Of a DNA stretch of 31,116 nucleotides, positions 7,301 to 31,116 are shown piece by piece (within the stretch, counting starts at the first letter, position 1; every line of letters starts with the position of its first letter). The stretch is from a virus (Duplodnaviria; Heunggongvirae; Uroviricota; Caudoviricetes): IMG/VR virus record IMGVR_UViG_2690316344_000014. The stretch is one strand, 5' to 3'. The notes under the pieces were generated by a model. It made no database searches. It was not told the origin of the DNA and saw nothing but the letters and a program-made list of their open reading frames with translations. The position numbers were made by a program, and so were the translations under genes.

Positions 7301-7319
7301 TTAGTAAACAATTGGCATA

Positions 7320-9344: not shown

Positions 9345-9407
9345 TAATTATGCCGTGTTGATTTCCCAAAATCAAAATCGATAGAATTGCTCCTTCTTAA
9401 AACACTT

Positions 9408-10205: not shown

Positions 10206-10214
10206 ACTCTCACC

Positions 10215-11032: not shown

Positions 11033-11230
11033 CAGTATTTGAATCTGCGACCAAGAGTTCTCACCTAACAAATGATTAAGATTGTATAGCTCATTTACTA
11101 CCCCAATACAGCCGTACAAAACTCGCTTGTGGGAGCAAACAAAGTAATTACCCATTAAGTTTCGTCAAAGATAATTAATTCTGTCTTGCACTTTATCACC
11201 ATAGCATAACTTAAAATCCGAGATCATTAT

Positions 11231-12757: not shown

Positions 12758-13013
12758 GGTGACACCTGCTAACGTATGCTTTTATAAACCTTAGTGGTGG
12801 GATATAATTTTTTGTTTATTTTTTATTTAAAAAGACAATTAAGGTCACATTATCTTGAATATACAACAATAATCGTATTGCAATTTTCTTACGCCATAAT
12901 CTTGAAAGCACAAAAGAATACATAAAAAATAAAGACATTAACAAAAAGCATAAAACGAGGCTCATATAAATATAAGAGCCTCCATATTTTAGTCGTTTAG
13001 AAACAAATTATTT

Positions 13014-13256
13014 TAATGTGGTGTGCTTCGTGACAATAAATTAATAATCAACACACCGGCACAAATCAACATCATGCCTATAATGGCTGGCAGGTCCAGC
13101 CGTTGGCCGAAAAATCCCCATGACAGTAAGCTAATCAGGACAATACCGACTCCTGACCAGATAGCATAAGCAATCCCTGTAGGAATATAAGCCAGCGTCT
13201 GAGCTAATAACCAGAATGATGCACAATAACAAATAATTGTACCAACAGATGGCCAT
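13014..13256 (-). pseudogene. emrE: emrE (small multidrug resistance transporter) 3' fragment, 5' end replaced by IS2
   Basis: Reverse-strand translation gives WPSVGTIICYCASFWLL ... ending LLSRSTPH-stop, the EmrE C-terminal ~80 residues. The reading frame breaks at the IS2 terminal repeat at 13257. Confidence 0.75.
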
Positions 13257-13966
13257 TGGATTTGCCCCTATATTTCCAGACACCTGTTATCACTTAACCC
13301 ATTACTGGCTTGCTGCCGTAGATATTCCCGTGGCGAGCGATAACCCAGTGCACTATGCGGATGCCATTCGTTATAATGCTCGAACGCCTCTGCAAGGTTC
13401 TTTGCTGCCGTTAACCCGTCTGGTTTGGGCATGACACTGATGTAGTCACGCTTTATCGTTTTCACGAAGCTCTCTGCTATGCCGTTACTCTCCGGACTCC
13501 GCACCGCCGTGCTCTTCGGTTCAAGCCCCAACATCCGGGCAAACTGCCGTGTTTCATTAGCCCGGTAGCATGAACCATTATCCGTCAGCCACTCTACTGG
13601 AGACGCCGGAAGCTCGTTGCCGAAGCGGCGTTCCACCGCTCCCAGCATGACGTCCTGTACTGTTTCACTGTTGAAGCCGCCCGTAGTGACCGCCCAGTGC
13701 AGTGCCTCACGGTCACAGCAGTCCAGCGCGAACGTGACTCGCAGTTTTTCTCCGTTATCACAGCGGAACTCGAACCCGTCAGAGCACCATCGCTGATTAC
13801 TTTCTTTCACAGCCACTCTGCCTGTATGTGCCCGTTTCGATGGCGGTACAGCAGGTTTTCGCTCAAGCAACAGCGCATTCTGGCGCATGATCCGGTAAAC
13901 ACGTTTGGCATTGATCGCAGGCATACCATCAAGTTCTGCCTGTCTGCGAAGCAGCGCCCATACCCG
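13257..13966 (-). mobile_element. IS2 partial copy (right end and 3' part of insD only, ~710 bp of ~1.3 kb)
   Basis: Reverse complement of 13257-13300 is the IS2 terminal sequence (...GGGTTAAGTGATAACAGGTGTCTGGAAATATAGGGGCAAATCCA). The InsD C-terminal 218 aa is intact. Similarity to IS2 stops after ...CGCCCATACCCG at 13966, where the lambda gam 3' end begins. Confidence 0.85.
13268..13924 (-). CDS. insD: IS2 transposase InsD, C-terminal fragment (IS3 family OrfB)
   Basis: [53 protein letters not shown] ... [24 protein letters not shown]. The N-terminal third of InsD and all of insC are absent. Confidence 0.85.
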
Positions 13967-14072
13967 TGCGTTTGATGACGATGTTGAGTTTCAGGAGCGC
14001 ATGGCAGAACACATCCGGTACATGGTTGAAACCATTGCTCACCACCAGGTTGATATTGATTCAGAGGTATAA
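13965..14072 (+). pseudogene. gam: gam 3' fragment (last ~35 codons of lambda Gam)
   Basis: Translates as [35 protein letters not shown]-stop, the lambda Gam C-terminus, directly upstream of bet. The 5' part is deleted at the IS2 junction. Confidence 0.8.
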
Positions 14073-14077
14073 AACGG

Positions 14078-14863
14078 ATGAGTACAGCACTCGCAACGCT
14101 GGCTGGGAAGCTGGCTGAACGTGTCGGCATGGATTCTGTCGACCCACAGGAACTGATCACCACTCTTCGCCAGACGGCATTTAAAGGTGATGCCAGCGAT
14201 GCGCAGTTCATCGCATTACTGATCGTTGCCAACCAGTACGGCCTTAATCCGTGGACGAAAGAAATTTACGCCTTCCCTGATAAGCAGAACGGCATCGTTC
14301 CGGTGGTGGGCGTTGATGGCTGGTCCCGCATCATCAATGAAAACCAGCAGTTTGATGGCATGGACTTTGAGCAGGACAATGAATCCTGCACATGCCGGAT
14401 TTACCGCAAGGACCGTAATCATCCGATCTGCGTTACCGAGTGGATGGATGAATGCCGCCGCGAACCATTCAAAACCCGTGAAGGCAGAGAAATCACGGGG
14501 CCGTGGCAGTCGCATCCTAAACGGATGTTACGGCATAAAGCCATGATTCAGTGTGCCCGTCTCGCCTTCGGATTTGCGGGTATCTATGACAAGGATGAAG
14601 CCGAGCGCATTGTCGAAAATACCGCATACACTGCAGAACGTCAGCCGGAACGCGACATCACTCCGGTTAACGATGAAACCATGCAGGAGATTAACACTCT
14701 GCTGATTGCCCTGGACAAAACATGGGATGACGACTTATTGCCGCTCTGTTCCCAGATATTTCGCCGCGACATTCGCGCATCGTCGGAACTGACACAGGCC
14801 GAAGCAGTGAAAGCTCTTGGATTCCTGAAACAGAAAGCCTCTGAACAGAAGGTGGCTGCATGA
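14078..14863 (+). CDS. bet: Red-beta single-strand annealing recombinase Bet
   Basis: 261 aa, [66 protein letters not shown]..., near-identical to lambda Bet over its full length. Confidence 0.95.
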
Positions 14864-15540
14864 CACCGGACATTATCCTGCAGCGTACCGGGATCGACGT
14901 GAGAGCTGTCGAACAGGGGGATGATGCGTGGCACAAATTACGGCTCGGCGTCATCACCGCTTCAGAAGTTCACAATGTGATAGCAAAACCCCGCTCCGGA
15001 AAGAAATGGCCTGACATGAAAATGTCCTACTTCCACACCCTGCTTGCCGAGGTTTGCACCGGTGTGGCTCCGGAAGTTAACGCTAAGGCGCTGGCCTGGG
15101 GAAAACAGTACGAGAACGACGCCAGAGCCCTCTTTGAGTTCACTTCCGGCGTGAATGTTACTGAATCCCCGATCATCTATCGCGACGAAAGTATGCGCAC
15201 CGCCTGCTCTCCCGATGGTTTATGCAGTGACGGCAATGGCCTTGAACTGAAATGCCCGTTTACCTCACGGGATTTCATGAAGTTCCGGCTCGGTGGTTTC
15301 GAGGCCATAAAATCGGCTTACATGGCCCAGGTGCAGTACAGCATGTGGGTGATACGAAAAGATGCCTGGTACTTTGCCAACTATGACCCGCGTATGAAGC
15401 GTGAAGGCCTGCATTATGTCGTGATTGAGCGGGATGAAAAGTACATGGCGAGTTTTGACGAGATGGTGCCGGAGTTCATCGAAAAAATGGACGAGGCACT
15501 GGCTGAAATTGGTTTTGTATTTGGGGAGCAATGGCGATGA
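14860..15540 (+). CDS. exo: lambda exonuclease (Red-alpha)
   Basis: 226 aa, [65 protein letters not shown]..., full-length match to lambda Exo. Start overlaps the bet stop. Confidence 0.95.
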
Positions 15541-15719
15541 AGCATCCTCACGATAATATCCGGGTAGGCGCGATCACTTTCGTCTACTCCGTTACAAAGC
15601 GAGGCTGGGTATTTCCCGGCCTTTCTGTTATCCGAAATCCCCTGAAAGCACAGCGGCTGGCTGAGGAGATAAATAATAAACGGGGAGCTGTATGCACAAA
15701 GCATCTCCCGTTGAGTTAA
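15531..15719 (+). CDS. lambda orf61-like small early protein
   Basis: 62 aa immediately after exo, the position of lambda orf61. Product unknown. Confidence 0.55.
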
Positions 15720-15883
15720 GAACGAGTATCGAGATGGCACATAGCCTCGCTCAAATTGGAGTCAGGTTTGTGCCAATACCAGTAGAAACAGACGAAGAAT
15801 TTCATACGTTAGCCGCATCCCTTTCACAAAAGCTGGAAATGATGGTGGCGAAAGCAGAAGCAGATGAGAGAGACCAGGTATGA
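15692..15883 (+). CDS. lambda orf63-like small early protein
   Basis: 63 aa, [63 protein letters not shown]. Position matches lambda orf63. Confidence 0.55.
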   Translation: MHKASPVELRTSIEMAHSLAQIGVRFVPIPVETDEEFHTLAASLSQKLEMMVAKAEADERDQV

Positions 15884-15959
15884 CAACCACTGAATGCATT
15901 TTTCTGGCAGCGGGCTTCATATTCTGTGTGCTTATGCTTGCCAACATGGGGCTTGTTCA

Positions 15960-16175
15960 ATGACACCTCAGCAAGAAAACGCCCTTCGCAGCATTGCCCG
16001 TCAGGCTAATTCTGAAATCAAAAAAGCCAGACAGCAGTTTCCGGATAAAAACGTCGATGACATTTGCCGTAGCGTACTGAAGAAGCACCGCGAAACGGTA
16101 ACGCTGATGGGATTCACACCGACTCATTTAAGCCTGGCGATCGGCATGTTAAACGGCGTCTTTAAGGAGCGATGA
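15960..16175 (+). CDS. lambda orf60a-like small early protein
   Basis: Internal start MTPQQENALRSIARQANSEIKKARQQFPDKNVDDICRSVLKKHRETVTLMGF...; position matches lambda orf60a. Confidence 0.5.
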   Translation: MTPQQENALRSIARQANSEIKKARQQFPDKNVDDICRSVLKKHRETVTLMGFTPTHLSLAIGMLNGVFKER

Positions 16176-16273
16176 ACATGAAAAGCAAAATCATCAGGGA
16201 GCTACAGGCTCCTTTTTTATTATTCGCATTCACCCTCAAGCGTATTAACCAACAATTCAGGGATTAATGGAAG

Positions 16274-16492
16274 ATGGCAGACATCATTGATTCAGCATCA
16301 GAAATCGAAGAATTACAGCGCAATACAGCAATAAAAATGCGTCGTCTGAACCACCAGGTTATATCTGCCACTCATTGTTGTGAGTGTGGCGATCCCATAG
16401 ATGAACGAAGACGCCTGGCCGTTCAGGGTTGTCGGACTTGTGCAAGTTGCCAGGAGGAGATCGAACTTAAGAACAAACAATGGGGATTGTGA
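16274..16492 (+). CDS. TraR/DksA-family C4 zinc-finger protein (lambda Orf73-like)
   Basis: 72 aa with CxxC-x17-CxxC (CCECGDPIDERRRLAVQGCRTCASC), the TraR/DksA C4-type zinc-finger layout. Phage homologues of this family are known to act on host RNA polymerase. Confidence 0.65.
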   Translation: MADIIDSASEIEELQRNTAIKMRRLNHQVISATHCCECGDPIDERRRLAVQGCRTCASCQEEIELKNKQWGL

Positions 16493-16539
16493 TGGCCTCA
16501 AAGCAGCAAATTTCAACATCGTCCAACTGAGGTGTAAAA

Positions 16540-16818
16540 ATGTTCAGAATCATTTTTCCTAACACCTGGTACGTCGACCACCACGGCACTCCCTGCAAAA
16601 TCCTGCGTTCTACCCACAACAAAGTTCACTACATCCGAAAAGGCAGAACATGTATCGCCAGCATGTTCCGCTTTAATCATGACTTTGAACCTGTGAATAA
16701 AGCTGATGCAGATCGGATAGCAGAAGAGATCGAAACGGCAGAACACATTAAGAAGTTACGTGACATGCGTTCAAAAAGCAGAGGTAACCATGGAATCATA
16801 CAGCCTCACACTCGATGA
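16540..16818 (+). CDS. small Cys/His-rich early-left protein (possibly Ea8.5-like)
   Basis: 92-aa ORF between the TraR-like gene and xis, with several His/Cys residues. Assignment is tentative, from position and size only. Confidence 0.4.
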   Translation: MFRIIFPNTWYVDHHGTPCKILRSTHNKVHYIRKGRTCIASMFRFNHDFEPVNKADADRIAEEIETAEHIKKLRDMRSKSRGNHGIIQPHTR

Positions 16819-17140
16819 GGCCTGTCAGTTTCTCAAGATATCCAGACCTACCGCTACCAACTGGATACGAACAGGCCGCCTACAGGCAACACGCAAAGAC
16901 CCCACTAAACTAAAATCTCCTTACCTCACAACACGACAAGCCTGCATTGCGGCGCTTCAGTCTCCGCTGCATACTGTCCAGGTGAGCGCGGGTGATGGCA
17001 TAACAGAGGAAAGAAAATGTCACTCTTCCGCAGAGGTGAAATATGGTACGCCAGTTTCACATTGCCGAACGGTAAAAGATTTAAACAGTCTCTTGGAACA
17101 AAGGACAAAAGGCAGGCGACAGAACTCCATGACAAGCTAA
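16790..17140 (+). CDS. xis: excisionase (Xis), HTH DNA-binding
   Basis: Internal start with a good SD (GAGGTAACC-ATG): [37 protein letters not shown]. Immediately upstream of int, but overlaps it by ~120 nt, so the true 3' end is uncertain and the gene may be frameshifted. Confidence 0.55.
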
Positions 17141-18180
17141 AGGCTGAAGCATGGCGGGTCAGCAAACTTGGTGAAATACCTGATATAACGTTCGAGGAAG
17201 CGTGTGTCAGGTGGCTTGAAGAGAAAGCACATAAAAAATCACTGGACGATGACAAAAGCCGGATCGGATTCTGGCTTCAACATTTCGCAGGAATGCAACT
17301 AAGAGACATTACTGAATCAAAAATTTATTCAGCAATGCAGAAAATGACGAACCGGCGTAATGAGGAAAACTGGAAACTCAGGGCAGAAGCATGCAGAAAA
17401 AAAGGGAAACCTGTTCCAGAATACAAGCCAAAACCAGCGTCTGTTGCAACGAAGGCTACGCATCTTTCATTTATAAAAGCCCTACTAAGAGCCGCAGAGC
17501 GTGAATGGAAAATGCTGGATAAGGCACCAATTATTAAAGTGCCTCAACCAAAGAATAAACGGATCCGCTGGCTGGAGCCCCATGAAGCACAAAGGCTGAT
17601 TGATGAATGTCCGGAGCCATTAAAGTCTGTTGTTGAATTTGCACTGGCAACAGGCTTAAGACGCTCGAACATCATCAACCTTGAATGGCAACAAATAGAT
17701 ATGCAGCGCCGGGTGGCATGGATAAACCCGGAAGAGAGTAAATCAAACCGCGCAATCGGCGTTGCGCTGAATGATACTGCATGTCGCGTATTGAAAAAAC
17801 AAATCGGGAATCATCACCGTTGGGTATTTGTGTACAAGGAAAGCTGTACCAAACCAGACGGAACGAAAGCGCCAACAGTAAGGAAGATGCGGTATGACGC
17901 AAACACAGCCTGGAAAGCGGCGCTGAGACGGGCTGGTATTGATGATTTCAGATTTCACGACTTGAGACACACCTGGGCAAGTTGGCTGGTTCAAGCCGGA
18001 GTCCCGTTGTCAGTGTTACAGGAAATGGGAGGCTGGGAGTCTATCGAAATGGTTCGTCGATATGCTCACCTTGCACCTAATCACCTTACCGAACACGCAC
18101 GGCAAATAGACTCGATCCTGAACCCATCGGTCCCAAATTTGTCCCAGTCAAAAAATAAGGAAGGTACTAATGATGTGTAA
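17017..18180 (+). CDS. int: prophage tyrosine integrase (DLP12 IntD-like)
   Basis: 387 aa with a C-terminal catalytic region ([42 protein letters not shown], i.e. HxxR ... Y). Ends 15 nt before the tRNA-Thr fragment and is convergent with it. Confidence 0.9.
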
Positions 18181-18194
18181 CTTATTGATTTAAA

Positions 18195-18243
18195 TGGTGC
18201 CGATAATAGGAGTCGAACCTACGACCTTCGCATTACGAATGCG
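18195..18243 (-). other. att core: 3' 49 nt of a tRNA-Thr(CGU) gene (thrW-like), not a complete tRNA
   Basis: Reverse complement is CGCATTCGTAATGCGAAGGTCGTAGGTTCGACTCCTATTATCGGCACCA: anticodon stem-loop (anticodon CGT), T-arm and CCA end. Sequence 5' of the anticodon stem does not continue as D-arm or acceptor stem. Confidence 0.8.
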
Positions 18244-18331
18244 TAAATTGATCTTGTAAAATCAATACCTATCGAATTTAAATGGATTTTTTGCCACAAT
18301 ATTGCCACAGTTCGTTAGGAATCAGACAGAA

Positions 18332-19405
18332 ATGGCGACTATACGCAAACGTGGTAACTACCAATGGGAAGCTCAAATCCGTAAACGTGGTTTTCCCTCT
18401 CAAACCAAAACCTTTAACACCAAAGTAGAAGCAGAAGCTTGGGCCAAAATGATCGAGTCAGAAATGGCGAGAGGAGTTTGGCTTAGCCGCAGCGAAGCGG
18501 AATCTACGACATTGTATGAAGCCCTAACGCGATATGAAAAAGAGATTGTTCCCGACAAAAAAGGGGCAGTGCAAGACCGATCATTGGTGCGGATACTAAA
18601 AGGCACTCAGCTGGCGAAAAACTATATGGCCAGCATCAGGAGTGCCGATGTCGCCAAGCTGAGAGATGAATGGTTGAAAATCTATGCTCCTGCAACCGTT
18701 TTAAGGCGTTTGGCCTTACTTTCTCATGTATTCAATGTTTCGCGGAAAGAATGGGGCATGGAGAGCCTGCTGAACCCCGTAGAGGCCATTCGCAAACCCC
18801 AACCCAAGAACTCCAGGACCAGACGCCTAGAAGCGCTGCCTGTAGTTTCTGAGAAAACCGGTGTTACGTCAGGAAAGCAAATAGCCAACGAGATCGAACA
18901 TATCATCGCCGCAACACATTCATTAGTATTGCCAGCAATCATTCTTCTGGCGTTAGAGACAGCCATGCGCCGTAGCGAAATCGCAGAGCTTCGATGGCGC
19001 TTTATCGATCTTGATCGGCGAGTTGCACATCTGCCGGATACTAAGAATGGTAATGCCCGCGATGTCCCTTTATCAACGAAAGCCATTACGATACTGTCCA
19101 GTCTCAAGGAACATTCTAAGCCAGCTGCTGATAAGGTTTTTGATATGCGTGCAGACGCGATTACCCGAGCTTTTGACCGAGCTGTAAAACGAGCCAGAGA
19201 ACGATACGAGAAAACAAACTCATTATGTGATGAATCTTTCCTTAAAGATTTAAGATTTCATGACCTTCGACATGAAGCAACTTCTCGACTTGCTGAAATT
19301 TTCCCTATGCATGAACTAACCAAAATTACAGGACATAAAGATCCAAGAATGCTAATGCGGTATTATCATCCAAAAGCTGAAGATTTGGCGTTAAAGTTGA
19401 AATAA
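18332..19405 (+). CDS. second tyrosine site-specific integrase/recombinase
   Basis: MATIRKRGNYQWEAQIRKRGF... with C-terminal catalytic residues (RRSE, LRFHDLRHEATSRL, MLMRYYH). The ORF can start at 18302. Lies just across the att fragment from the prophage int. Confidence 0.85.
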   Translation: MATIRKRGNYQWEAQIRKRGFPSQTKTFNTKVEAEAWAKMIESEMARGVWLSRSEAESTTLYEALTRYEKEIVPDKKGAVQDRSLVRILKGTQLAKNYMASIRSADVAKLRDEWLKIYAPATVLRRLALLSHVFNVSRKEWGMESLLNPVEAIRKPQPKNSRTRRLEALPVVSEKTGVTSGKQIANEIEHIIAATHSLVLPAIILLALETAMRRSEIAELRWRFIDLDRRVAHLPDTKNGNARDVPLSTKAITILSSLKEHSKPAADKVFDMRADAITRAFDRAVKRARERYEKTNSLCDESFLKDLRFHDLRHEATSRLAEIFPMHELTKITGHKDPRMLMRYYHPKAEDLALKLK

Positions 19406-19414: not shown

Positions 19415-20305
19415 ATGGATTATAAAAATAAGTTAGTTGATGCATCACCAAAATTAAACAACCCTCAACTATTGGCTATAATATACTTAATACCTTTTGG
19501 ATACTTGATTGTAGAAAACCCATTATGGCTAGAAAATATATACATTGCCGCTCCAATTTTCCTATCATCTATAGCTTTATTAACCAGTGTATACATAGGA
19601 TATCGTGATTTATTAAATAAAGTATTTAATAATGCAGTAGTTAAATGGGGCGTAACTGGCTTTACATATTCCGTATGCTTATGGATCGCAAAGTTTAAGC
19701 TTGACATAGCTTATGGTATAGTCCCAGAAAACCTTAATTACTCGACATTAGCTTATGCTTTCATGCTCTCATTTCCAATAGGGGCAATGATTTGTGCAAT
19801 TACAGTCTATATATACATATTTTTGCGAGATGTATCCCCAGCAAAAATAGTAATATCCTCTATGATTTCAGTATATATTGGAAGCTTGGCTCAACATCAT
19901 ATACAGGTGAACAATCTTCCTGAAAAAATAATATTAATAGGACTTATAATTATGGTCCCCTATAACATGGTCAATTTAGCTAGTTCATTAGTTATTAAAA
20001 GGAAATTTAATTTTAATCGTTTAGTATCAGGCTTATCCCTTTTTGCTGTGTCAGTTGCTCTTTTTATTATTAGCATGACAGCAATGAAATACATTGAAAG
20101 ATTTCAAGAAAAGTTTATTTTTCTCGATGCAAGAACATCTACGACATGTGGTAGCTCAGAAAGCAAATCTCTTTATATTGAAAAAAATGAAAATCAGTGT
20201 TATAAAATATCAGGAAATAAATTCTCGGAGTTAAGACTAACTCTTGTAGATAAAAACATCTTGAATATAAATAATAAAGGCACTTCAACTTATGAACAAA
20301 AATAA
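19415..20305 (+). CDS. hypothetical polytopic inner-membrane protein
   Basis: 296 aa, AT-rich codon usage, multiple long hydrophobic segments (LLAIIYLIPFGYLIV, AAPIFLSSIALLTSVYIGY, LIGLIIMVPYNMVNLASSLVI, LSLFAVSVALFIISM). No family recognised. Confidence 0.6.
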   Translation: MDYKNKLVDASPKLNNPQLLAIIYLIPFGYLIVENPLWLENIYIAAPIFLSSIALLTSVYIGYRDLLNKVFNNAVVKWGVTGFTYSVCLWIAKFKLDIAYGIVPENLNYSTLAYAFMLSFPIGAMICAITVYIYIFLRDVSPAKIVISSMISVYIGSLAQHHIQVNNLPEKIILIGLIIMVPYNMVNLASSLVIKRKFNFNRLVSGLSLFAVSVALFIISMTAMKYIERFQEKFIFLDARTSTTCGSSESKSLYIEKNENQCYKISGNKFSELRLTLVDKNILNINNKGTSTYEQK

Positions 20306-20519
20306 CCCTGCTAATTCATTTTCTATAGAAGCAAGGAAAGAAGCTTTTCGGAGAGCTGAAGCCAGTCTTTTTTATCAAGTAAAGATCCCAAAGGCTCCTC
20401 ATTTTTTAATGAAATAAAAACTAAGGTAATCAATGGAGAGCTAACCTATGAAGAGGCAAAGAGAGAAGTATTAAATTATCACATTGAACAATCTAAAAAT
20501 CAAAATAAAAAAGGCTAAC
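20292..20519 (+). pseudogene. small ORF split by a frameshift at a T6 run (41-aa 5' part plus 3' part in another frame)
   Basis: MNKNNPANSFSIEARKEAFRRAEASLFYQVKIPKAPHFLMK-stop. Adding one T at the T6 run (20405-20410) restores a 75-aa ORF ending ...NGELTYEEAKREVLNYHIEQSKNQNKKG. Function unknown. Confidence 0.3.
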
Positions 20520-20539
20520 ATTTAGTTAGCCTCTTCTCA

Positions 20540-20752
20540 CTAGTGAGCTATTTTATAGTCCCTTAATGCATTTTTAAGTAACTCCGTTTGCTCATCAGCA
20601 TCATCATAATTATAAATTCCCGTAGCAGAATAATACTCTTCGATGCATAGAATATTTATCAATGGTTCACAAATCTCTTTAATAAACTCCTTGTTGTTAT
20701 CGGCAAAAATAATTTTTATTCCTTCCAAAACAAAGCTATTATAATCAGCCAT
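20540..20752 (-). CDS. hypothetical small acidic protein
   Basis: 70-aa ORF 70 nt downstream of trbL on the same strand. No recognisable family. Confidence 0.4.
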   Translation of the reverse strand: MADYNSFVLEGIKIIFADNNKEFIKEICEPLINILCIEEYYSATGIYNYDDADEQTELLKNALRDYKIAH

Positions 20753-20782
20753 TATCCACCTCCTTACAGGTGTTTAGTGGAA

Positions 20783-20814
20783 GCGTCAGTTAACGTTACC
20801 GCGCTAACTGACGC
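20783..20814. repeat. hairpin: 10-bp inverted repeat with 12-nt loop between trbL and the 70-aa ORF
   Basis: GCGTCAGTTA (20783-20792) and TAACTGACGC (20805-20814). No flanking U-run. Confidence 0.3.
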
Positions 20815-20821
20815 GCCTAAA

Positions 20822-22225
20822 TCAAGATTTTTTACTGCCAGTTAAACTATCACCCTCAAACTCATCCTGTTCGTGGTTAGTCTGACGATCGGCTGTGTGT
20901 TTACGTATTTGATTCGCTATTTCCCCACCAACGGTCTGTTGTCTTCGGATAGTATTAGTACTTCCCTTCATCATCTGATACTCCGAAGCTCCGTTAGACA
21001 ACCCGCTCGCCATGTGAGAAGCCATGCGGCCAGCTCGTGAGAATGATGAAGCAAACCCCTGGCTTCCTCCGCTGACGCTACCTGTATTACTCCCTGCAGA
21101 AGAACCACCGGAACCGCCTGATGGTTGTCCTCCAGAAGTATCTACGGAACCGGTATCTTCCCCTCCGCCAAATCCTCCACCTGAACCACCTTTATCACCA
21201 GAACCAGATTCTTCGGCCATCGCCGCTTGTGCAGATTCAAATGCTGCTTTTAGAGCGGAAGCACCACCACTGACTTGAGCTGTAGCACTTATTGCCATTG
21301 CCCCAGCGCCACTGATTGCAGTAGTAGCAGCGCCAGTAATCATACCTGCTCCAAAACCACCGATCCCTTGTAAGGACGCTCCTCCAACAACGCCTGATAA
21401 CAACAACGGTAATTTATTCGTCAATACTAAAAGAATAATTGACGCCAGAAGTAAAACAATAAGACTATTAAGATCAGGAATATCATTTTTAATAATAGAA
21501 AAATACTGATCTATAAATGATTGCCCAATCCCAATGATTAATGTCATCGTAAATAACTGAATACCAATCGATAATACTGTGCGTAAGTAATTTATTGCTA
21601 TATCAGAAGTCCATTTCGAGCCACCAAACCCAAGCAAAATAACTCCTGCATAACACAACACCCATGCAGAAACTAACATTATTAGCATATTTATCGCGAT
21701 AAGCGCCATTACTACTAATACTATTATCGCGACGGTTATCATAATGGTCGAAATCATTGGAGACCAAATTGATGCTGCTGAACTGACCTTTGTTAATATC
21801 ACAAATGCCATATCCACTATGCTGGAGGGTGAAATACCAGTACTTGTTCCTAAAGCATTTGCTGCAAGTTGTCTCATTGAGTTAATTATAGATTGTGATA
21901 TGGCTGGGCCGTTGATTAAAAGATAATAAAAAAAACCAATCACGGCAAAAAAACGAACTATTTCTGCAAGTGCACTGATTAAACCTTCCCCTTGCATCGC
22001 CAACATACCAAATGTCCAAACCATACTTATTAATACCACCCCCCAGAAGAGCCAATTTGCATAATCACCAATTACTAATGACCATGTGCTGGCTACTTGC
22101 TGAAACTTATCTAATAACGTATCAAGTAATCCGCTACTATCTAATTGACCAGCATAAGCATTTACAGAAAACAAAAAAAACATTCCTAAAAAAGTGAGCT
22201 TGCTTACTATTCTCATAATTACCAT
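20822..22225 (-). CDS. trbL: P-type conjugative transfer protein TrbL/VirB6
   Basis: 467 aa. N-terminal signal plus multiple transmembrane helices, then a C-terminal Gly/Ser-rich low-complexity tail (GGSGGGFGGGEDTGSVDTSGGQPSGGSGGSSAGS), typical of TrbL. Confidence 0.8.
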   Translation of the reverse strand: MVIMRIVSKLTFLGMFFLFSVNAYAGQLDSSGLLDTLLDKFQQVASTWSLVIGDYANWLFWGVVLISMVWTFGMLAMQGEGLISALAEIVRFFAVIGFFYYLLINGPAISQSIINSMRQLAANALGTSTGISPSSIVDMAFVILTKVSSAASIWSPMISTIMITVAIIVLVVMALIAINMLIMLVSAWVLCYAGVILLGFGGSKWTSDIAINYLRTVLSIGIQLFTMTLIIGIGQSFIDQYFSIIKNDIPDLNSLIVLLLASIILLVLTNKLPLLLSGVVGGASLQGIGGFGAGMITGAATTAISGAGAMAISATAQVSGGASALKAAFESAQAAMAEESGSGDKGGSGGGFGGGEDTGSVDTSGGQPSGGSGGSSAGSNTGSVSGGSQGFASSFSRAGRMASHMASGLSNGASEYQMMKGSTNTIRRQQTVGGEIANQIRKHTADRQTNHEQDEFEGDSLTGSKKS

Positions 22226-22392
22226 TCTCGCTTAGGGCTAGGATTGTTATTGCCACGCAGGGCACATTTATCGTAGTTATGTTCGTTCAATTTATTCTCT
22301 GGCGTCGATAAACAATCTTCATCTTTTTTATCGCAAGAGCATAGAATTAATGAAATTATTAGAATAAAAATGACCAAAAGTTTATCTTTCAT
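22219..22392 (-). CDS. small putative lipoprotein in the TrbK (entry-exclusion) position
   Basis: Found by hand (57 aa, below the ORF-track cut-off): MKDKLLVIFILIISLILCSCDKKDEDCLSTPENKLNEHNYDKCALRGNNNPSPKREW. Hydrophobic N-terminus followed by Cys; sits between trbJ and trbL as trbK does in IncP plasmids. Confidence 0.45.
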   Translation of the reverse strand: MKDKLLVIFILIISLILCSCDKKDEDCLSTPENKLNEHNYDKCALRGNNNPSPKREW

Positions 22393-22403
22393 TCAGCTCT
22401 CCC

Positions 22404-23198
22404 TCACCAAATTCGCTTCGGGCTTGGTGTGTTCTCGCCAGCTAACGCTTTTTCATCAGCGACTATTTGTTGGGCTTCTTTATCAGCCTCAGCCTGTGCC
22501 AGTGTTGCTGCAGCGTTTTGCTGAGCTACCAGAAGCGAGCGGATTTGCAGCAACTGGTTCGTTTGAGCACTGGCAAGCTGGTTAGCGGCCTGAATAGCTT
22601 CCATTTGCCCTTGTGCGCCGGTTGCCTGCGTTTGTAAATCTGCAAGGTTGTCAGCATCGCTTTGCAGTGTTTCCTGCTGTTCGTCAAGAGCCTTAAATAC
22701 AGCGTCATTGGCCTTTTTACGTGCCTCAGAGCTGTTCTGTTCAGCTTTGCGCAGTGCGCTAATTTCATCCGCAGTACATTCAACATTACTGTTAAAGCAC
22801 GGTGATGAGCGGTAGTAATTCACGTCCTGATAACGTTTCAGATATGAATCAAGACTCCCGGCCTGGTTTTTGTAGTAATTTAGGGTGTCCTGCGCCTGCA
22901 ACAATTTGTTGATGGTCGAATTGGCCTGATCCCAGATATAGGCTGCAGGTGCGACTGTATTTTTGAGCATGTTTTCATACTGCTGCAGCTGCGTCTGGTA
23001 CTGCTGGATCTGTTTTGCCACAGCCTGAACGTTGTTGACTGCGCTGATTGTGGTCTGCACCACATTAGTACCATCGATTACAGGGATACCGGCTGTCGCC
23101 GGTAATGCCATGATGGACGCCAGGAAGGAAGCAGCTAATGATTTTTTAGCTGCTAAAATCCCTCTCAGTGATGAAAATACTCGGAGCATTAACTTCAT
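22404..23198 (-). CDS. trbJ: P-type conjugative transfer protein TrbJ (VirB5-like)
   Basis: 264 aa, signal peptide then a coiled-coil-rich Q/A-rich sequence (QIQQYQTQLQQYENMLKN ...). The trbJ-trbK-trbL order is conserved. Confidence 0.75.
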   Translation of the reverse strand: MKLMLRVFSSLRGILAAKKSLAASFLASIMALPATAGIPVIDGTNVVQTTISAVNNVQAVAKQIQQYQTQLQQYENMLKNTVAPAAYIWDQANSTINKLLQAQDTLNYYKNQAGSLDSYLKRYQDVNYYRSSPCFNSNVECTADEISALRKAEQNSSEARKKANDAVFKALDEQQETLQSDADNLADLQTQATGAQGQMEAIQAANQLASAQTNQLLQIRSLLVAQQNAAATLAQAEADKEAQQIVADEKALAGENTPSPKRIW

Positions 23199-23279
23199 TT
23201 GCCCACCTCAAATTTAACTGATTATTAATATTGAAAACTCGTACTTTTAACAAATACAGATATTTAGGAAACCATAAAT

Positions 23280-23645
23280 TTATTTATTCAAGATTCTATC
23301 CATAATATTTCTTAGTTCTTGTCTGGTTGATTCTATTTTAGCAAGCAACGTTTTTATCAATGAGGGTGAAAAATCAACTGTGCGTGGATCGTTAGCTAAC
23401 CACAGTTTAAGTAACCCACCAAGTCGACCAAGATCAGCATTTACTCGGCTAAGCTCTACAACCTGTTCAATATCTACCATAGACTCAACCTGATAACCCA
23501 TTGCTACTTTACGAATGAAACTCGCTACACTTAAGCCAGATGCTTCTGCATTATCCTGGATTTGCGCTTTTTCATCTGGCAAACAATAAACTTTAATTGG
23601 TGTACTATTTTTTCTAGTCTGAGAAACGGTCATATCATTCTCCAT
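23280..23645 (-). CDS. traJ: relaxosome accessory oriT-binding protein, TraJ/MobC family
   Basis: 121 aa with PIKVYCLPDE and DLGRLGGLLKLWL motifs resembling RP4 TraJ / the MobC family. Sits immediately beside an RP4-like oriT. Confidence 0.75.
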   Translation of the reverse strand: MENDMTVSQTRKNSTPIKVYCLPDEKAQIQDNAEASGLSVASFIRKVAMGYQVESMVDIEQVVELSRVNADLGRLGGLLKLWLANDPRTVDFSPSLIKTLLAKIESTRQELRNIMDRILNK

Positions 23646-23660
23646 ACAGGCGGTAGCCGA

Positions 23661-23765
23661 TCAGCCTCGCAGAGCAGGACTCCGTTGAGCAGCTCAGCTG
23701 CGAATAAGGGAAGGTAAAGTAGAAGCACCGTTTACGGTGGGCCTACTTTACATATCCTGCCCTAC
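23661..23765 (+). other. origin of transfer (oriT), IncP/RP4 type, with TraJ-binding inverted repeat and nic site
   Basis: CAGCCTCGCAGAGCAGGACTCCGTTGAGCAG ... GCGAATAAGGGAAGGTAAAGTAGAAGCACCGTTTACGGTGGGCCTACTTTACATATCCTGCCC closely parallels the RP4 oriT as I recall it from mob vectors. Inverted repeat GTAAAGTAG (23714-23722) / CTACTTTAC (23743-23751), then the ATCCTG/C nick consensus at 23754-23760. Confidence 0.8.
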
Positions 23766-23915
23766 ATTTGCCGTTGTGAATCTGTGTACGTATTGTGTAT
23801 TCCTGTGTACTCAGTGTGTTTTCCTAAAGCATTTGTGCAGGATTAGTAGTGTAAAAATGTGCAGCATATGTGTTTATTGGAATGGAAATTATTTGAATGA
23901 CCCTAAGAGATATTT

Positions 23916-24197
23916 TTATTCTCGCGGCTTGGGTTTTGGCGGCCTGCCACGTTTCCTTTGACATCTATTTATCTCTTTCGCTATATCGTCATTTTCTGTC
24001 TTTGACTCAACAGATTTATCTATCCAGTCCTTAACATCTTCTTTACGCCAGAGAAGACGTTTATTACCGGGAAGACGGCATCTTGGTGGAAGACATTTTG
24101 GATTTCGCGTTGCATCACTGCGGATACTTTTTACAGTTTTCTTTAATGCAAAAGCCAACTCTTCAACGGTTATAAGTTCTGGCATAACTGATTTCAT
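23916..24197 (-). CDS. alpA: AlpA-family DNA-binding protein (excisionase/transcriptional regulator-like)
   Basis: MKSVMPELITVEELAFALKKTVKSIRSDATRNPKCLPPRCRLPGNKRLLWRKEDVKDWI, the AlpA/MerR-like winged-HTH pattern, with a basic C-terminal tail. The ORF can start at 24209. Confidence 0.7.
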   Translation of the reverse strand: MKSVMPELITVEELAFALKKTVKSIRSDATRNPKCLPPRCRLPGNKRLLWRKEDVKDWIDKSVESKTENDDIAKEINRCQRKRGRPPKPKPRE

Positions 24198-24231
24198 CGA
24201 AGAACCCATCTCTCAGTAGAAATTTGAGGAT

Positions 24232-25819: not shown

Positions 25820-27082
25820 TCAAATTTTCTTTTTAGCGATAAAAATACAGTAAAAATATAAGGTTTTGATAATGTGATTAATGCTGTGCACCTCGCGAAA
25901 TAATAGTAATAGCTTCCTCATAAAAGACATGAAACTAAGTTCGTTGTATTTAGTGCGTTCCATTCCTTCCTTAGCGAAATAGTAGGTTATCATCTGAATT
26001 GACTCTTTATATTCATATTTATAATGTGCAATGCCATTTCGCAGCTTGTTGTCTAAAGCATTGAGATCAACTATATAAAAGCTATCATCCAATCCGCTTA
26101 TTTTCGTGCCTAAATCAACGTTTGCATATTCGTTGAGACTAGAAAAACCTTTAATTAAATCGCCTTTTTTATTTAGTCTTACTGAATCGTCAAAAATATT
26201 ATGATCTCCGCGTTTTAATAAGTTATTCAATCCGGCCACAATTATTAATTGCCGAGAGAATACTTCAGATAAGTCTTTGTAAAAATTGTTACAGTCATCA
26301 AATTCGGCAGTTGAAACTCGAGCAGGAATCATTGATAAATCTACGTTTTTATCATAATCATAGTAAAGCGCTGGGCGTGAAGGGAGTTCAAAGTCAAGCA
26401 TTTTGGGATATAGGCTTAAACAATCGAAATGCAAACTTTTCAGAAACCCACTTCCAATAATATCATCTAAAAATTTATTTAGCTGTTTTGGATGATTTTT
26501 CTGAATATAATGAAGAAATTGTGGCATTTTTTCACTAATTTCAGCATTATGTGCATGTATTGTAAAGGGAAATGACATTGCAGAGGTTGCTGTATAAAGT
26601 GCGGAAAGGATATCTTGTATTTTTAGCGAACGAGGTTTTTTCAGAGTAGGTAATTCTTTCATTAGGTTACTGAAAGTATTGTAATTTCCTTGTTTGTATT
26701 GAGTAATGAGTCGCTGGAGCTTATCGCGATGTTTATAAATATAATTCATTCCATTTAGATGTGCGTTCAGCATTAAGTATTTTTCATGACCTATTGCACT
26801 TGTTATTTTTAAGAATGCTGTTTTTCCTATTTCGTATTTTCCAAAGCCTACGGGAAAATCTAAATGCAAATCGATGAATGGATTTGTTGTGCCAAAGTCA
26901 TTGCTTTCTACAGTTTCCGCACCGTTAAATACAGGCTCTCCCTCCCCAAGAGTAAACGATATATTATTCTCACAATTTGGACATGCAAATTGGAACGGTT
27001 GTATGTCTCGATTAGACATACCTATTCTTGTATCAATGACCGTGTCACATACAAGGCATTTAAATTGCTGTAAAAAATTCAT
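25820..27082 (-). CDS. hypothetical protein with N-terminal zinc-ribbon (CxxC ... CxxC), 420 aa
   Basis: MNFLQQFKCLVCDTVIDTRIGMSNRDIQPFQFACPNCEN: Cys9/Cys12 and Cys34/Cys37. AT-rich; no family recognised by eye. Confidence 0.6.
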   Translation of the reverse strand: MNFLQQFKCLVCDTVIDTRIGMSNRDIQPFQFACPNCENNISFTLGEGEPVFNGAETVESNDFGTTNPFIDLHLDFPVGFGKYEIGKTAFLKITSAIGHEKYLMLNAHLNGMNYIYKHRDKLQRLITQYKQGNYNTFSNLMKELPTLKKPRSLKIQDILSALYTATSAMSFPFTIHAHNAEISEKMPQFLHYIQKNHPKQLNKFLDDIIGSGFLKSLHFDCLSLYPKMLDFELPSRPALYYDYDKNVDLSMIPARVSTAEFDDCNNFYKDLSEVFSRQLIIVAGLNNLLKRGDHNIFDDSVRLNKKGDLIKGFSSLNEYANVDLGTKISGLDDSFYIVDLNALDNKLRNGIAHYKYEYKESIQMITYYFAKEGMERTKYNELSFMSFMRKLLLLFREVHSINHIIKTLYFYCIFIAKKKI

Positions 27083-27329: not shown

Positions 27330-27857
27330 TTAACAATTTGTAGTCTTTCCGACCAAATTACCGCGCGCAGTGTGACCCCATACTTTAGATGTCACCTTAT
27401 CTCTTTCCACTAGTTGTTTACGGTGCATCAAATCGGCAAGCAGTATTGAAACAAAGAACATGAATTTTGTTTTGGGAGTATTAGGAACATCTTTGGGTCC
27501 AAGCCAAGGTAGCTGCTCCAGTTGATTTTGTATTTTGGGTGTTGCGAAGCTAACACCATTCCAACTATGCCCAAAAGCATTTCTAATGCTACGCAGTGTG
27601 TTTAGTTCTTTGTATTCGTGTTCCATTATCAGTCCTAACGCATATGCTAAGCCTGTTCTAGCAGCAAAAGATGATAAAGGCGCTGTTGCACCATTCAGTA
27701 GACCTTTAGCTACTTTGTCATTTAACAGGTGAGCCTGGATGATCTCGGATAACCACTCATCGAAAATGGATGCTGCTATTAGAACAGAGCCACGATCTGA
27801 TTCTTTATTTAGTTCGGACAAAAATTGACCGAGTTCAATTTGGGTTTTATCACTCAC
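27330..27857 (-). CDS. HEPN/MtlR-like protein with Rx4H motif (candidate RNase-type toxin or abortive-infection protein)
   Basis: 175 aa. The N-terminus (GSVLIAASIFDEWLSEIIQAHLL) resembles the MtlR/HEPN helical fold; RNAFGH (R92-x4-H97, nt 27567-27584) fits the HEPN Rx4-6H motif. Confidence 0.5.
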   Translation of the reverse strand: MSDKTQIELGQFLSELNKESDRGSVLIAASIFDEWLSEIIQAHLLNDKVAKGLLNGATAPLSSFAARTGLAYALGLIMEHEYKELNTLRSIRNAFGHSWNGVSFATPKIQNQLEQLPWLGPKDVPNTPKTKFMFFVSILLADLMHRKQLVERDKVTSKVWGHTARGNLVGKTTNC

Positions 27858-28371: not shown

Positions 28372-29049
28372 TTACATGTAGATATTCATTAAACTGTCAA
28401 ATAGTCTTTTGGTTAACTCTTTTTCCGCTCGTGCTTCGATTTGAGCCATACCATTTCGGAAGAGTTTTAATTTACCGCTAAATTCTTGGTCATGAATAGT
28501 ACATGTCAATCGATCAAGTCTCATTTTTTTGTGAATAAGCTCATCTTTGAAATATTTTTTAAGATCGCTGGTACTATTAATTTGCATCTTGGCAAGAGCA
28601 AATTCAGCAACTTGAATTTGAGATACATCTAGTTGCACTATATTAAGTGTCAACTCTGTGTTTAAAGAACTGAACCATATGAACGGGTCAATCTCAATCT
28701 CTTCTAAGCTGGTACCAAGACCAAGGTTTTTTACCAGTGCCTGAGCAAATGGTTTAAGTGTTCTCGGTGGATTATCAATAAGTAAAACTGGGGTGTATTG
28801 TTCGTCAAAACTGAAAGATGTTACTCTATATTCAATGCGTTCAACAGCGGTACTGTTGCCGTATAGATTACTTATTCTATCTTCGCTAATTATCTTTTCG
28901 ATGAAGCGAGCGTGAAAATGAGATGTTCGTGATTTATCAAATATAAACCCTTTCCCTTTCTCTTCAGTAAAAGGATCACGCATGAGTTTTTCAACTGTTT
29001 CACTAGTAGTGAAACGATTGTTGAGTTTAATCCATTTAAATTTTTTCAT
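28372..29049 (-). CDS. hypothetical protein, gene C of a coupled three-gene operon
   Basis: 225-aa ORF whose start overlaps the last 14 nt of the upstream gene. AT-rich; no recognisable motif. Confidence 0.6.
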   Translation of the reverse strand: MKKFKWIKLNNRFTTSETVEKLMRDPFTEEKGKGFIFDKSRTSHFHARFIEKIISEDRISNLYGNSTAVERIEYRVTSFSFDEQYTPVLLIDNPPRTLKPFAQALVKNLGLGTSLEEIEIDPFIWFSSLNTELTLNIVQLDVSQIQVAEFALAKMQINSTSDLKKYFKDELIHKKMRLDRLTCTIHDQEFSGKLKLFRNGMAQIEARAEKELTKRLFDSLMNIYM

Positions 29050-30115
29050 GCTCTTCCACCTTTTTACCCGTCACGATATTATAGGCGTCTGCTGCTGACT
29101 GTTCAATTAGTAGGCTGATTTTCTTCTTTTCAACTTCATTTGCTGCACGAATAGTAACATTGTATCCACTACCTTTTTGGTTATTGATTCCTTTAATTTG
29201 ATAGGAAAAATCAGAGCAATTTTCTGAATCCTTAAAGAAAGCTTCAACCAAAATCCTGTCTCCTATTCCGTTTTTAGGTTTAGCAGACCAAGCAATTCTT
29301 CCAATATAGTATCCTTTGTTATGTAGTTGGGTGAAAATAGCAGAACTATTAACAGAATCACCTTTTAGAACCGCTTTTTTTACGAATCCTGTCTCGATTT
29401 CTTCTTCTTCCTCGTCATCACCTTTGCTTGTTGAACGGTTAAGCTCTACATTAGTAACGTCGTCAATTTCATATCCACTCAAGCCGCCCATAACCTCTTG
29501 AAAAAACTGACTTCTTAGCGCTGGTGTAGGAATCGCTTCTAAAGAAATTTCAAACTTTTCAACATCAACGGATTTAATCTTTGACAACTCTTTTTGTAAT
29601 AGTGTTATTACATCTTTAGCCTTTTGGTTCTGAGGCATACGAATATCAACATTATCGTTATTTACAGTAAGATCAATCTTGATGTTTCGGTTGTCTATCT
29701 GACGCAATGCTGTTCTGGACAAGTCTACTTCTTGGTAGTTTACCTCGATTGCTAAAGACCCATCTTTTTTCGCAGTGATTTTTACTGTTTCACCAGAGCC
29801 AGTGGCTAATTTTCTTTTAACTAACTCTGCTGCTGTTTTTAATTCCGTCTGAGAGGATGATGCTTGAAGCTTGACGCTAGTTATACTCTCTCTTTTATCA
29901 TAAGTTTGTACAAGTTCCTTAATAGAATCTAGATCACTATATCCCTGAGGTAGTTTGCAAACCTCTTCAATTAATTCCTCCTTTGTTAAGTCTTGAGCAA
30001 CAATAATACCTTTCCGTAATAATATCTCGCGTAATCTTGCGATGGTAATTCGTTTATGATGAAGTGCATCATATATATTTTTGTCAGTTGCGAAATAAAT
30101 ATTCATGTTATTCAT
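29036..30115 (-). CDS. hypothetical protein, gene B of a coupled three-gene operon
   Basis: 359 aa with an acidic stretch (GDDEEEEEIE). Its ATG overlaps the upstream stop by 1 nt (TAATG). No family recognised. Confidence 0.6.
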   Translation of the reverse strand: MNNMNIYFATDKNIYDALHHKRITIARLREILLRKGIIVAQDLTKEELIEEVCKLPQGYSDLDSIKELVQTYDKRESITSVKLQASSSQTELKTAAELVKRKLATGSGETVKITAKKDGSLAIEVNYQEVDLSRTALRQIDNRNIKIDLTVNNDNVDIRMPQNQKAKDVITLLQKELSKIKSVDVEKFEISLEAIPTPALRSQFFQEVMGGLSGYEIDDVTNVELNRSTSKGDDEEEEEIETGFVKKAVLKGDSVNSSAIFTQLHNKGYYIGRIAWSAKPKNGIGDRILVEAFFKDSENCSDFSYQIKGINNQKGSGYNVTIRAANEVEKKKISLLIEQSAADAYNIVTGKKVEEHEKI

Positions 30116-31116
30116 TAACGTTGCTCCATGCCTATAGCTTCAAGACTATATTGAATTACCATTGCAGCTGTTTTTTCGAATGCAACTTTTGAAAACAAAC
30201 GTTCACTTTCGCCTGATAGCCAATGGGCACTATATTTTTGCTTTGCTCTTTCAAAGTGATGAATGGAGTCTTCATGCGGATTTATATGACAATGTCTAAT
30301 TTTTATTCTTTTTGCATCAGTCAGTATTTGATAATTAGAAAGCATGTCAAGGAAATAGATGAACTCATCTTCACTATTCCCTGGTTGATTATAATAAATT
30401 ACGTAACCACTATCTTCTTTTTCACCCATCCAATCGAATTCTTCATGCTTTATTATTATGAATGGTGATGTTAAGACCTCAACAGTAGCTGCAGTCTTAT
30501 TGTTGATAGGATGTTTTATCCTAGTTAGTGCTAAGTCTGGGTAATAGAAATAGTACAAATCTGGTTGAGGTAAAGCCCCGGTACCAATAAGCATTTTAAT
30601 ATCTGATGCTATATTTATCATATCGGATATTTTGAATGGATCTAAAAGGTGTAATTTTATGTTTGGGGGGCATTTTATTATTTCAGGGTCGACTTTCTTC
30701 ATCACGGATGAGTAAAAATCCTTGTCATAAAGGTTGTCATGATTATAGAGAAATAATAAACCTCGAACTTTGTAACCTAATGACTCATCCCGCACATATC
30801 GTTTACACCACTGTTGGCTAATGTTGGCGCATTCTGTAGCGAGAGCTAAAGAAGAAAGTGCACCTTCTACCATCCCTTTGCCGATACTACTTTGAGCATA
30901 GCTTTTGAGGTCTGTGTTCAAGTACACAATCTCTTCTTCATAAGGATCGGTATAGTAAAACACCACATCGCTAGGATGTGTTTTTTTGTCATGAGCCTCT
31001 AGGTCGCAATCCCAGTTCATATCTTGACTAGTAGCTCGTTGCCATTTGAAAATTTTAAAAATATCTTGGGTTATCTTATTTGCAACATGCTGTATTGAAG
31101 AGGTCTCTCCGCCCAT
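30115..31116 (-). CDS. hypothetical protein, gene A of a coupled three-gene operon; possible PD-(D/E)xK nuclease-like motif; start at or beyond the window edge
   Basis: At least 333 aa. The ORF reaches the last base of the window, where an ATG lies. A hydrophobic strand ending in Asp (DVVFYYTD57) is followed by EIVYLNTD69-L-K71, a pattern like restriction-endonuclease-fold motifs II/III. Confidence 0.55.
   Translation of the reverse strand: MGGETSSIQHVANKITQDIFKIFKWQRATSQDMNWDCDLEAHDKKTHPSDVVFYYTDPYEEEIVYLNTDLKSYAQSSIGKGMVEGALSSLALATECANISQQWCKRYVRDESLGYKVRGLLFLYNHDNLYDKDFYSSVMKKVDPEIIKCPPNIKLHLLDPFKISDMINIASDIKMLIGTGALPQPDLYYFYYPDLALTRIKHPINNKTAATVEVLTSPFIIIKHEEFDWMGEKEDSGYVIYYNQPGNSEDEFIYFLDMLSNYQILTDAKRIKIRHCHINPHEDSIHHFERAKQKYSAHWLSGESERLFSKVAFEKTAAMVIQYSLEAIGMEQR

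Follow-up and report, generated by a model that had tools for sequence, protein, structure and literature searches.

What do three overlapping genes of unfamiliar sequence do for the mobile element that carries them? The question is raised by one end of a 31,116-nucleotide (nt) stretch of viral DNA (Duplodnaviria; Heunggongvirae; Uroviricota; Caudoviricetes; IMG/VR record IMGVR_UViG_2690316344_000014), the whole of which is referred to here as the window. A preliminary description, made from the letters of the sequence, had recognized three minus-strand open reading frames (ORFs) of 333, 359 and 225 amino acids (aa), joined by a TAATG and by a 14-nt overlap, all of which were found where it had placed them, and had proposed that they form an undescribed system of the defence type. 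Judged from its sequence, the operon is almost certainly a functional-looking copy of a known three-gene anti-phage system, 3HP, which is named Rst_3HP in DefenseFinder and Hp1-Hp2-Hp3 in PADLOC.

This identification is made because the three proteins match PADLOC models over their full length and are homologous to those of a validated system, pFR109. In PADLOC-DB, the protein of gene 1 matches PDLC03004 (Hp1) with an expectation value (E) of 5.1e-176, aligned over residues 1-333 of 333, while the proteins of genes 2 and 3 match PDLC03005 (Hp2; E 2.2e-160) and PDLC03006 (Hp3; E 3.4e-80), in both cases essentially over the full length of protein and profile. Identity to the pFR109 reference proteins, which are those of Table S2A of Rousset et al. 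2022, extends over the full length and amounts to 71% for Hp1, 65% for Hp2 and 52% for Hp3. The pFR109 system, given as ‘hp + hp + hp’, comes from the P2 hotspot of Escherichia coli E1114 and guards E. coli against phage P1, one of the eight phages tested; in that study the gpQ-gpA hotspot of P2 was the source of eight additional cloned systems (Rousset et al. 2022, PMC9122126). Scans of the three proteins against Pfam-A and NCBIfam returned nothing meaningful, the Pfam set that was scanned being without PF26115 and PF26110, and 3HP was still listed as unclassifiable by domain in a 2024 survey.

The locus is already known: the discovery and validation of 3HP date from 2022, and DefenseFinder and PADLOC both recognize it. 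The suggestion that it was undescribed is contradicted by the PADLOC matches and by the identity to pFR109. The statement that none of the proteins could be placed in a family has to be withdrawn as well, as all three match named models full-length; the profile search that the preliminary description had itself put forward gave a confident match to a system that already has a name. Its view that a defence-type system sits in a mobile-element setting holds, in the form of 3HP on an island integrated at the tRNA gene thrW. Overall, what it observed is confirmed, and its interpretation is partly supported, in that the genes form a defence system, though one that had been described before.

Compared with the 3HP reference, the window operon encodes the same three proteins in the same order and with the same overlapping architecture, the reference lengths being 333, 359 and 227 aa. 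The two differ in where they are found. The reference system belongs to a P2-like prophage, in which gpQ and gpA flank it, whereas the window operon is a different allele in a different vehicle, the thrW-integrated island, which carries trbJ, trbL and traJ. The P2 gpQ-gpA hotspot is typical of 3HP and not strictly defining for it; the window allele lies elsewhere and has no portal or gpA homologue nearby, and on sequence grounds it agrees with 3HP in every other respect that could be checked. P2-type portal and gpA homologues occur within 6 kb at 50 of the 80 IMG/VR loci with an Hp1 relative, and none is present within this distance of the window allele or of its closest relatives (L001, L010 and L011). 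Klebsiella phage ST437-OXA245phi4.1 (Peduoviridae) provides an example of the other setting, with the trio between the portal and replication endonuclease genes, beside DinI, and DefenseFinder describes the system as mostly prophage-borne. Among 5426 complete E. coli genomes, 8-9 contain an operon 99.9% identical to that of the window, and the number with a 3HP rises to 27 when the P2-type alleles of ∼67% identity are included. As the discovery of a new defence system the locus carries no weight; its value lies in a mechanistic lead and in the vehicle switching of 3HP, which is shown to move between P2 hotspots and tRNA-integrated mobilizable islands.

The unity of the three genes is apparent from related loci. 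Profile hidden Markov models built from alignments of Hp1, Hp2 and Hp3 were run against all the related loci that were fetched, and Hp1, Hp2 and Hp3 are adjacent, and in this order, in all 83 of those with enough sequence. At three divergent loci the third ORF has the same size and position, though the profile missed it. The order holds down to identities of 35/26/21% in metagenomic defence islands, where the neighbours are type I restriction-modification (RM) genes, Gabija-like genes, AAA_15/DUF3696 and Mrr, and it is also kept in Vibrio vulnificus, Burkholderia and Pantoea; the ORF boundaries are adjacent or overlapping in distant homologues too. Because the ordered block is conserved in every related locus with enough sequence, the trio represents more than chance, and the comparison supports one translationally coupled functional unit. 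This agrees with the shared function that had been read from the overlapping ends. The check for co-occurrence that had been proposed covered 80 viral loci and five other contexts, and the genes do occur together and, at the metagenomic loci, within defence islands. Relatives of Hp1 (30-35% identity), annotated as ‘nuclease related protein’, also occur in the 13-kb Pseudomonas phage records 54-4 and 99-2 (L034/L035, L090, H34/H37), whose small size suggests satellites or fragments.

The probable activity of the system is indicated by Hp1, the predicted effector, which is a PD-(D/E)xK nuclease and a homologue of GAPS4a, its active site being the more canonical of the two. Its RefSeq product name is ‘PD-(D/E)XK nuclease domain-containing protein’, and a precomputed match to PF26115 (PDDEXK_GAPS4) is carried by a 98%-identical protein and by every homologue among the matches listed, at least 120 in number. 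When 46 homologues (34-84% identity) are aligned, E4, H47, P48, D50, D69, L70, K71 and S72 are among the positions that never vary, and E4, D50, D69 and K71 give the pattern E ... D ... (D/E)xK. The preliminary description had noticed a PD-(D/E)xK-like pattern in this protein, made up of D57 and D69-x-K71. The second part stands, D69-x-K71 being invariant in the 46 homologues; D57 is rejected as a catalytic residue, since the position varies (D/N/H/E) and D50 is the invariant upstream aspartate. Since D57 is variable, the D57A mutant that had been suggested would therefore probably be uninformative.

For the comparison with GAPS4, the RiKo sequences of GAPS4a and GAPS4b were transcribed from an AlphaFold 3 model that had been deposited, and File S1 of the preprint provided further GAPS4a sequences; the transcription of GAPS4b was confirmed by tblastn matches of 94% and 88% on plasmids, these being the only two copies, near-identical ones, in the plasmid search. 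With hhalign, the Hp1 profile matches the single GAPS4a sequence at a probability of 95.3%, and the profile-profile comparison reaches 97.8% (E 8.9e-13, 203 columns, Hp1 2-223 on GAPS4a 1-214). In the alignment THPSD50 of Hp1 falls on THGID49 of GAPS4a(RiKo), and D69-L-K71 falls on S-x-K. The Hp1 profile found no match among the sequences of the PDB.

The other two proteins are best approached through their predicted structures. The AlphaFold2 model of Hp3 has a predicted local distance difference test score (pLDDT) of 91 and a predicted template modelling score (pTM) of 0.83; the corresponding values for Hp2 are 82 and 0.72. Structure prediction and Foldseek, a check that had been proposed for these proteins, gave an RdgC-like fold for both models. 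The top structural match of each is the two-lobed fold of RdgC, RexA and Iml3-Chl4, with RdgC first for Hp3 (E 1e-6, template modelling score 0.50-0.53), followed by Iml3 and CENP-L. In the models, the order of secondary-structure elements in the core of Hp2 is that of Hp3, element for element. Pfam RdgC does not match Hp2 or Hp3 at E up to 1, and the Hp3 profile found no match among PDB sequences. By sequence both proteins lie outside the RdgC family, yet as modelled they share its fold. Known members of this fold bind DNA. The dimers of RdgC are ring-shaped and their DNA binding is non-specific, the DNA being thought to be held in a basic central pore; RexA, which belongs to a phage-exclusion system, has the RdgC fold; and Iml3 and Chl4 form a heterodimer that sits on centromeric DNA as a horseshoe (Adams et al. 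2024, PMC11077077).

Two parts of Hp2 are additional to the core. The first is the helical domain at its N-terminus, for which the precomputed domain PF26110 (GAPS4b_N) is carried by the V. vulnificus orthologue and, among 49 homologues of Hp2, by 11; the domain also gives a weak HeH/LEM match (E 0.02). Residues 1-75 are a candidate GAPS4b_N-like docking site for Hp1. The second is an acidic insert between the lobes, with pLDDT below 50 at residues 231-237 and a segment isoelectric point (pI) of 4.05, which is D/E-rich and of varying length in 34 of 34 aligned homologues; that it might serve as an autoinhibitory DNA mimic is speculation. Hp3 is basic, with a pI of 8.8, as is the Hp2 C-lobe, with one of 9.2, a hint of DNA binding that is only suggestive. 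On the strength of the models, Hp2 is predicted to be the scaffold and DNA-sensor subunit, with a helical N-terminal domain followed by a two-lobed RdgC/CENP-N-like core, and Hp3 is predicted to be a stand-alone protein of RdgC/Iml3(CENP-L) fold that partners Hp2 in a DNA-binding ring or horseshoe. A search with the Hp3 profile among 1.84 billion proteins gave 696 cluster representatives, and the best 150 of the 696 are all stand-alone proteins of ∼205-236 aa. Paralogy of Hp2 and Hp3 is unsupported by sequence, Hp3 not being similar to Hp2. Nor does sequence support an origin of Hp3 as a fragment split from GAPS4b, to which it shows no similarity; this possibility was dropped because GAPS4b, with 385 aa, already corresponds in size to Hp2 by itself.

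How these parts might work together is suggested by GAPS4, a two-gene system from Vibrio GMT islands (Mahata et al. 2024). GAPS4a has the motif HGxD...SxK, and D-to-A mutants lose defence (2025 preprint). The system is an a2b2 heterotetramer with a GAPS4b ring; DNA is degraded on sensing breaks or linear DNA, host and phage DNA alike, which lowers viability at high multiplicity of infection (2025 preprint). Neither component protects without the other. By analogy, Hp1 would be a PD-(D/E)xK DNase with the catalytic core E4 / D50 / D69-x-K71, held by the N-terminal helical domain of Hp2. Hp2 and Hp3, as two diverged proteins of the RdgC/CENP-N/L fold, would pair and enclose DNA in a ring or horseshoe, which would correspond to the ring that GAPS4b forms as a homodimer. 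On meeting DNA ends, breaks or linear incoming phage DNA, this ring would release or activate Hp1, which would then degrade DNA without discrimination of sequence or modification, and the infection would abort, as reported for GAPS4.

Our best overall explanation, which we consider probable, is a copy of 3HP acting as a GAPS4-like nuclease complex with an Hp2-Hp3 hetero-ring. The proposed mechanism taken as a whole, a ring-triggered Hp1 DNase with an abortive outcome, comes close to an even prospect and stays just below it. Slightly more tentative again is the view that 3HP is a three-subunit relative of GAPS4 in which an RdgC-fold hetero-ring, analogous to the CENP-N/CENP-L pair, threads onto or clamps DNA ends and licenses a docked DNase. 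By this comparison, 3HP and GAPS4 may belong to a single superfamily, 3HP with a hetero-ring and GAPS4 with a homo-ring. In the literature that was searched, 3HP was not found named together with GAPS4 or RdgC, and the GAPS4 preprint (2025) mentions neither 3HP nor RdgC; the link of 3HP to both is a fresh mechanistic lead, though a model-based one. If it is true, a system so far without recognizable domains would gain a testable mechanism and, together with RexA, the RdgC fold would be a recurrent sensor of DNA state in bacterial immunity.

Several observations weigh against the GAPS4-like explanation. The defence phenotype is that of the E1114 homologue rather than of the window allele, and the spectrum of this validated homologue (one of eight phages) is narrower than that of GAPS4, whose mechanism is itself known from a preprint. 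The Hp2 of the window has no precomputed PF26110 match, and full-length Hp2 gives no significant hhalign match to GAPS4b (E 0.11). A deeper Hp2 profile yields a weak match of Hp2 7-84 to GAPS4b 7-80 (P 0.008), the signal being confined to the N-terminal 75 residues. For Hp3, no sequence similarity to Hp2, GAPS4b or RdgC was found, and the RdgC link of both proteins is drawn from AlphaFold2 models rather than from solved structures.

The narrow spectrum bears on what triggers the nuclease. The signal for 3HP may be one particular protein or process of the phage, for example a factor specific to P1, with Hp2 and Hp3 as a protein-sensing scaffold or as an inhibitor that sequesters Hp1 in the manner of a toxin-antitoxin pair. 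Activity of the validated homologue on P1 alone among eight phages agrees with this, as does the tight coupling of three genes, which suits stoichiometric control of a toxic nuclease, and RexA, a relative by RdgC fold, excludes phage without a strict need for DNA binding. However, the closest characterized relative, GAPS4, responds to generic DNA breaks and requires each of its components for protection, and the fold of both accessory proteins is one whose known members bind DNA. We consider a phage-specific trigger unlikely, but keep it as a competitor because the restriction to P1 fits a sensor of exposed linear DNA and a phage-specific trigger equally well. The DNA of P1 enters the cell as a linear molecule, and this is also in keeping with a direct, non-abortive nuclease, in which an Hp2-Hp3 ring would load on free phage ends and guide Hp1, whose degradation would be confined to the molecule so loaded and leave the circular chromosome intact. 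By threading onto ends, such a ring would tell linear from circular DNA by topology. GAPS4, however, degrades host as well as phage DNA and cuts viability at high multiplicity of infection, and this possibility ranks somewhat lower than the phage-specific trigger.

A role outside defence is far less probable than either. The trio would then be an accessory module of recombination or replication, composed of RdgC-like modulators of RecA and a nuclease, that serves the P2 phage or the island. RdgC does modulate RecA and replication restart, and in P2-like phages the trio adjoins gpA and DinI. Nevertheless, the homologue cloned alone gives a defence phenotype, the P2 locus is a variable hotspot and not part of the phage core, and the trio is also found outside phages beside RM and Gabija-like genes, with a rarity (27 of 5426 E. 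coli genomes) that is expected of accessory defence cargo. The GAPS4-like nuclease complex remains the explanation that we prefer.

The positions of the genes and of the features within them are collected in Table 1. Base 30115 is common to the stop codon of Hp1 and the ATG of Hp2, the junction reading CGTTAATGAAT, CGT TAA TGA AT. The Hp2/Hp3 overlap (29036-29049) has the sequence ATGAAAAAATTTAA, and a Shine-Dalgarno sequence, AAGGTGGA (29055-29062), lies 5 nt upstream of the Hp3 ATG. The Hp1 ATG forms the last three bases of the window, ending at 31116, so that the operon promoter lies outside it; in strain PM22 the ∼700 bp upstream of the operon correspond to NZ_CP074019, 881351-882049. Scans for promoters and terminators returned nothing above chance. 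Truncation of Hp1 at the window edge was rejected on account of the PADLOC alignment over residues 1-333 of 333, and also by an identical 1002-nt gene in the RefSeq annotation. The provirus contig IMGVR_UViG_2671181019_000012 (L010), with a 100% identical operon, stops at the same base as the window, and this common end suggests the boundary of a predicted provirus rather than a biological one. No Walker A motif was found in the three operon proteins, in agreement with the earlier reading of their sequences. Two natural variants were also seen. In strain PM22, a GAA to TAA change at window position 29056 (L001 12685) shortens Hp2 by six residues to 353 aa and abolishes the 14-nt Hp2/Hp3 overlap, and in strain E1739 IS1 is inserted within the operon, so that impairment is a possibility for some of the copies in nature.

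Table 1. Coordinates, within the window, of the 3HP genes and associated features
Feature	Position	Strand	Basis
Hp1 gene	30115..31116	-	333 aa ORF
Hp2 gene	29036..30115	-	359 aa ORF
Hp3 gene	28372..29049	-	225 aa ORF
TAATG stop/start overlap, Hp1/Hp2	30113..30117	-	direct sequence reading
Hp2/Hp3 overlap and ribosome-binding site	29036..29062	-	direct sequence reading
Putative Hp1 catalytic core codons, H47-P-S-D50 ... D69-L-K71	30904..30978	-	invariant columns in homologue alignment
Hp2 residues 1-75, predicted four-helix N-terminal domain	29891..30115	-	helices 11-19, 25-34, 45-53 and 59-69 in model
Hp2 residues 228-246, acidic insert (…GDDEEEEEIE…) between predicted lobes	29378..29434	-	low model confidence
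Distal att copy bounding the island	18194..18243	.	exact 50-nt match to L001 15444-15493

The genomic setting of the operon is that of a tRNA-associated island beside a prophage, as the preliminary description had recognized. In strain PM22 (L001) the operon lies on an island of ∼13.5 kb that adjoins tRNA-Thr thrW and proA and contains an integrase, trbL/trbJ/traJ, VbhA and HigA antitoxins and both downstream neighbours of the window operon. The att copy covers the 3′ 49 nt of thrW, its match in L001 overlapping tRNA-Thr(CGU) at 15445-15520, and in PM22 the intact tRNA-Thr is ∼700 bp beyond the point corresponding to the window end. A 112-nt ‘tRNA-Ser’ that RefSeq places at the PM22 att copy is not supported by ARAGORN. 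Within the window, the 50-nt thrW copy is situated between two integrase genes (17017-18180 and 18302-19405), and one att site has taken up two elements in tandem, namely a lambdoid prophage resembling DLP12 (926-17285) and the thrW island (18.2-31.1 kb). The AT-richness that had been noted in the region is clear from the G + C contents, which are 35.8% for the operon, 37.7% for the island and 45.6% for the neighbouring prophage. The RefSeq annotation of the identical PM22 island assigns trbL, trbJ, traJ and VbhA-family and HigA antitoxins to window positions 19415-24209, a cargo that fits a mobilizable element stabilized by addiction modules.

The HEPN-like and zinc-ribbon genes that had been described as flanking the operon are both present, downstream of it. 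The nearer one (27330-27857, minus strand) encodes a 175-aa MtlR/MltR-like protein with an Rx4H (HEPN-type) motif, RNAFGH, and the next (25820-27082, minus strand) a protein of 420 aa that begins with a CxxC...CxxC zinc ribbon and has a motif of the same type, RNGIAH, towards its C-terminal end. The products may be an uncharacterized HEPN pair; neither matches any PADLOC model, and the genes are not conserved beside 3HP elsewhere.

When set beside known systems, 3HP would share a general logic with Shedu and Hachiman, defence nucleases that respond to DNA ends or aberrant DNA: a PD-(D/E)xK effector is licensed by the sensing of DNA ends or damage, as has been discussed for GAPS4. The operon proteins have no PADLOC match to the models of either, and the sensor modules differ: Hachiman uses a helicase and Shedu an N-terminal domain, as against the predicted RdgC-fold subunits of 3HP. 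Those subunits in turn share, as modelled, the two-lobed fold of RdgC (E. coli 2OWL, Pseudomonas aeruginosa 2OWY), lambda RexA, Iml3-Chl4 and CENP-L-CENP-N, known members of which bind DNA non-specifically as homo- or heterodimeric rings or horseshoes. Hp3, with 225 aa, is shorter than RdgC (∼300 aa), Hp2 differs from it by the extra N-terminal helical domain and the acidic insert, and RdgC and RexA, unlike Hp2 and Hp3, are not coupled to a nuclease.

The closest likeness is to GAPS4. Hp1 and GAPS4a have in common the PDDEXK_GAPS4 domain and ∼200 alignable residues, at an identity of only ∼23-25%, and D50 of Hp1 aligns with D49 of GAPS4a, whose D-to-A change serves as the inactive form. Within the motifs, H-P-x-D...D-L-K in Hp1 and H-G-x-D...S-x-K in GAPS4a, the His, Asp and Lys align, whereas Gly is replaced by Pro and Ser by Asp. 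Both systems place the nuclease gene first and the partner second, with overlapping genes, a ring-forming partner is predicted in both, and the N-terminal domain of some Hp2 homologues matches GAPS4b_N; the Hp2 core, in contrast, has no detectable sequence similarity to GAPS4b. GAPS4 consists of two genes, or of a fused single gene, as against the three of 3HP: its locus on the Ewingella plasmid pB61b has exactly two genes and no Hp3-like gene, whereas Hp3 is an obligatory third gene in all trio loci. As 3HP has three genes, another motif and a partner of which only part can be aligned, it is not GAPS4 in the strict sense, as far as the sequences tell, but by analogy it probably works like GAPS4.

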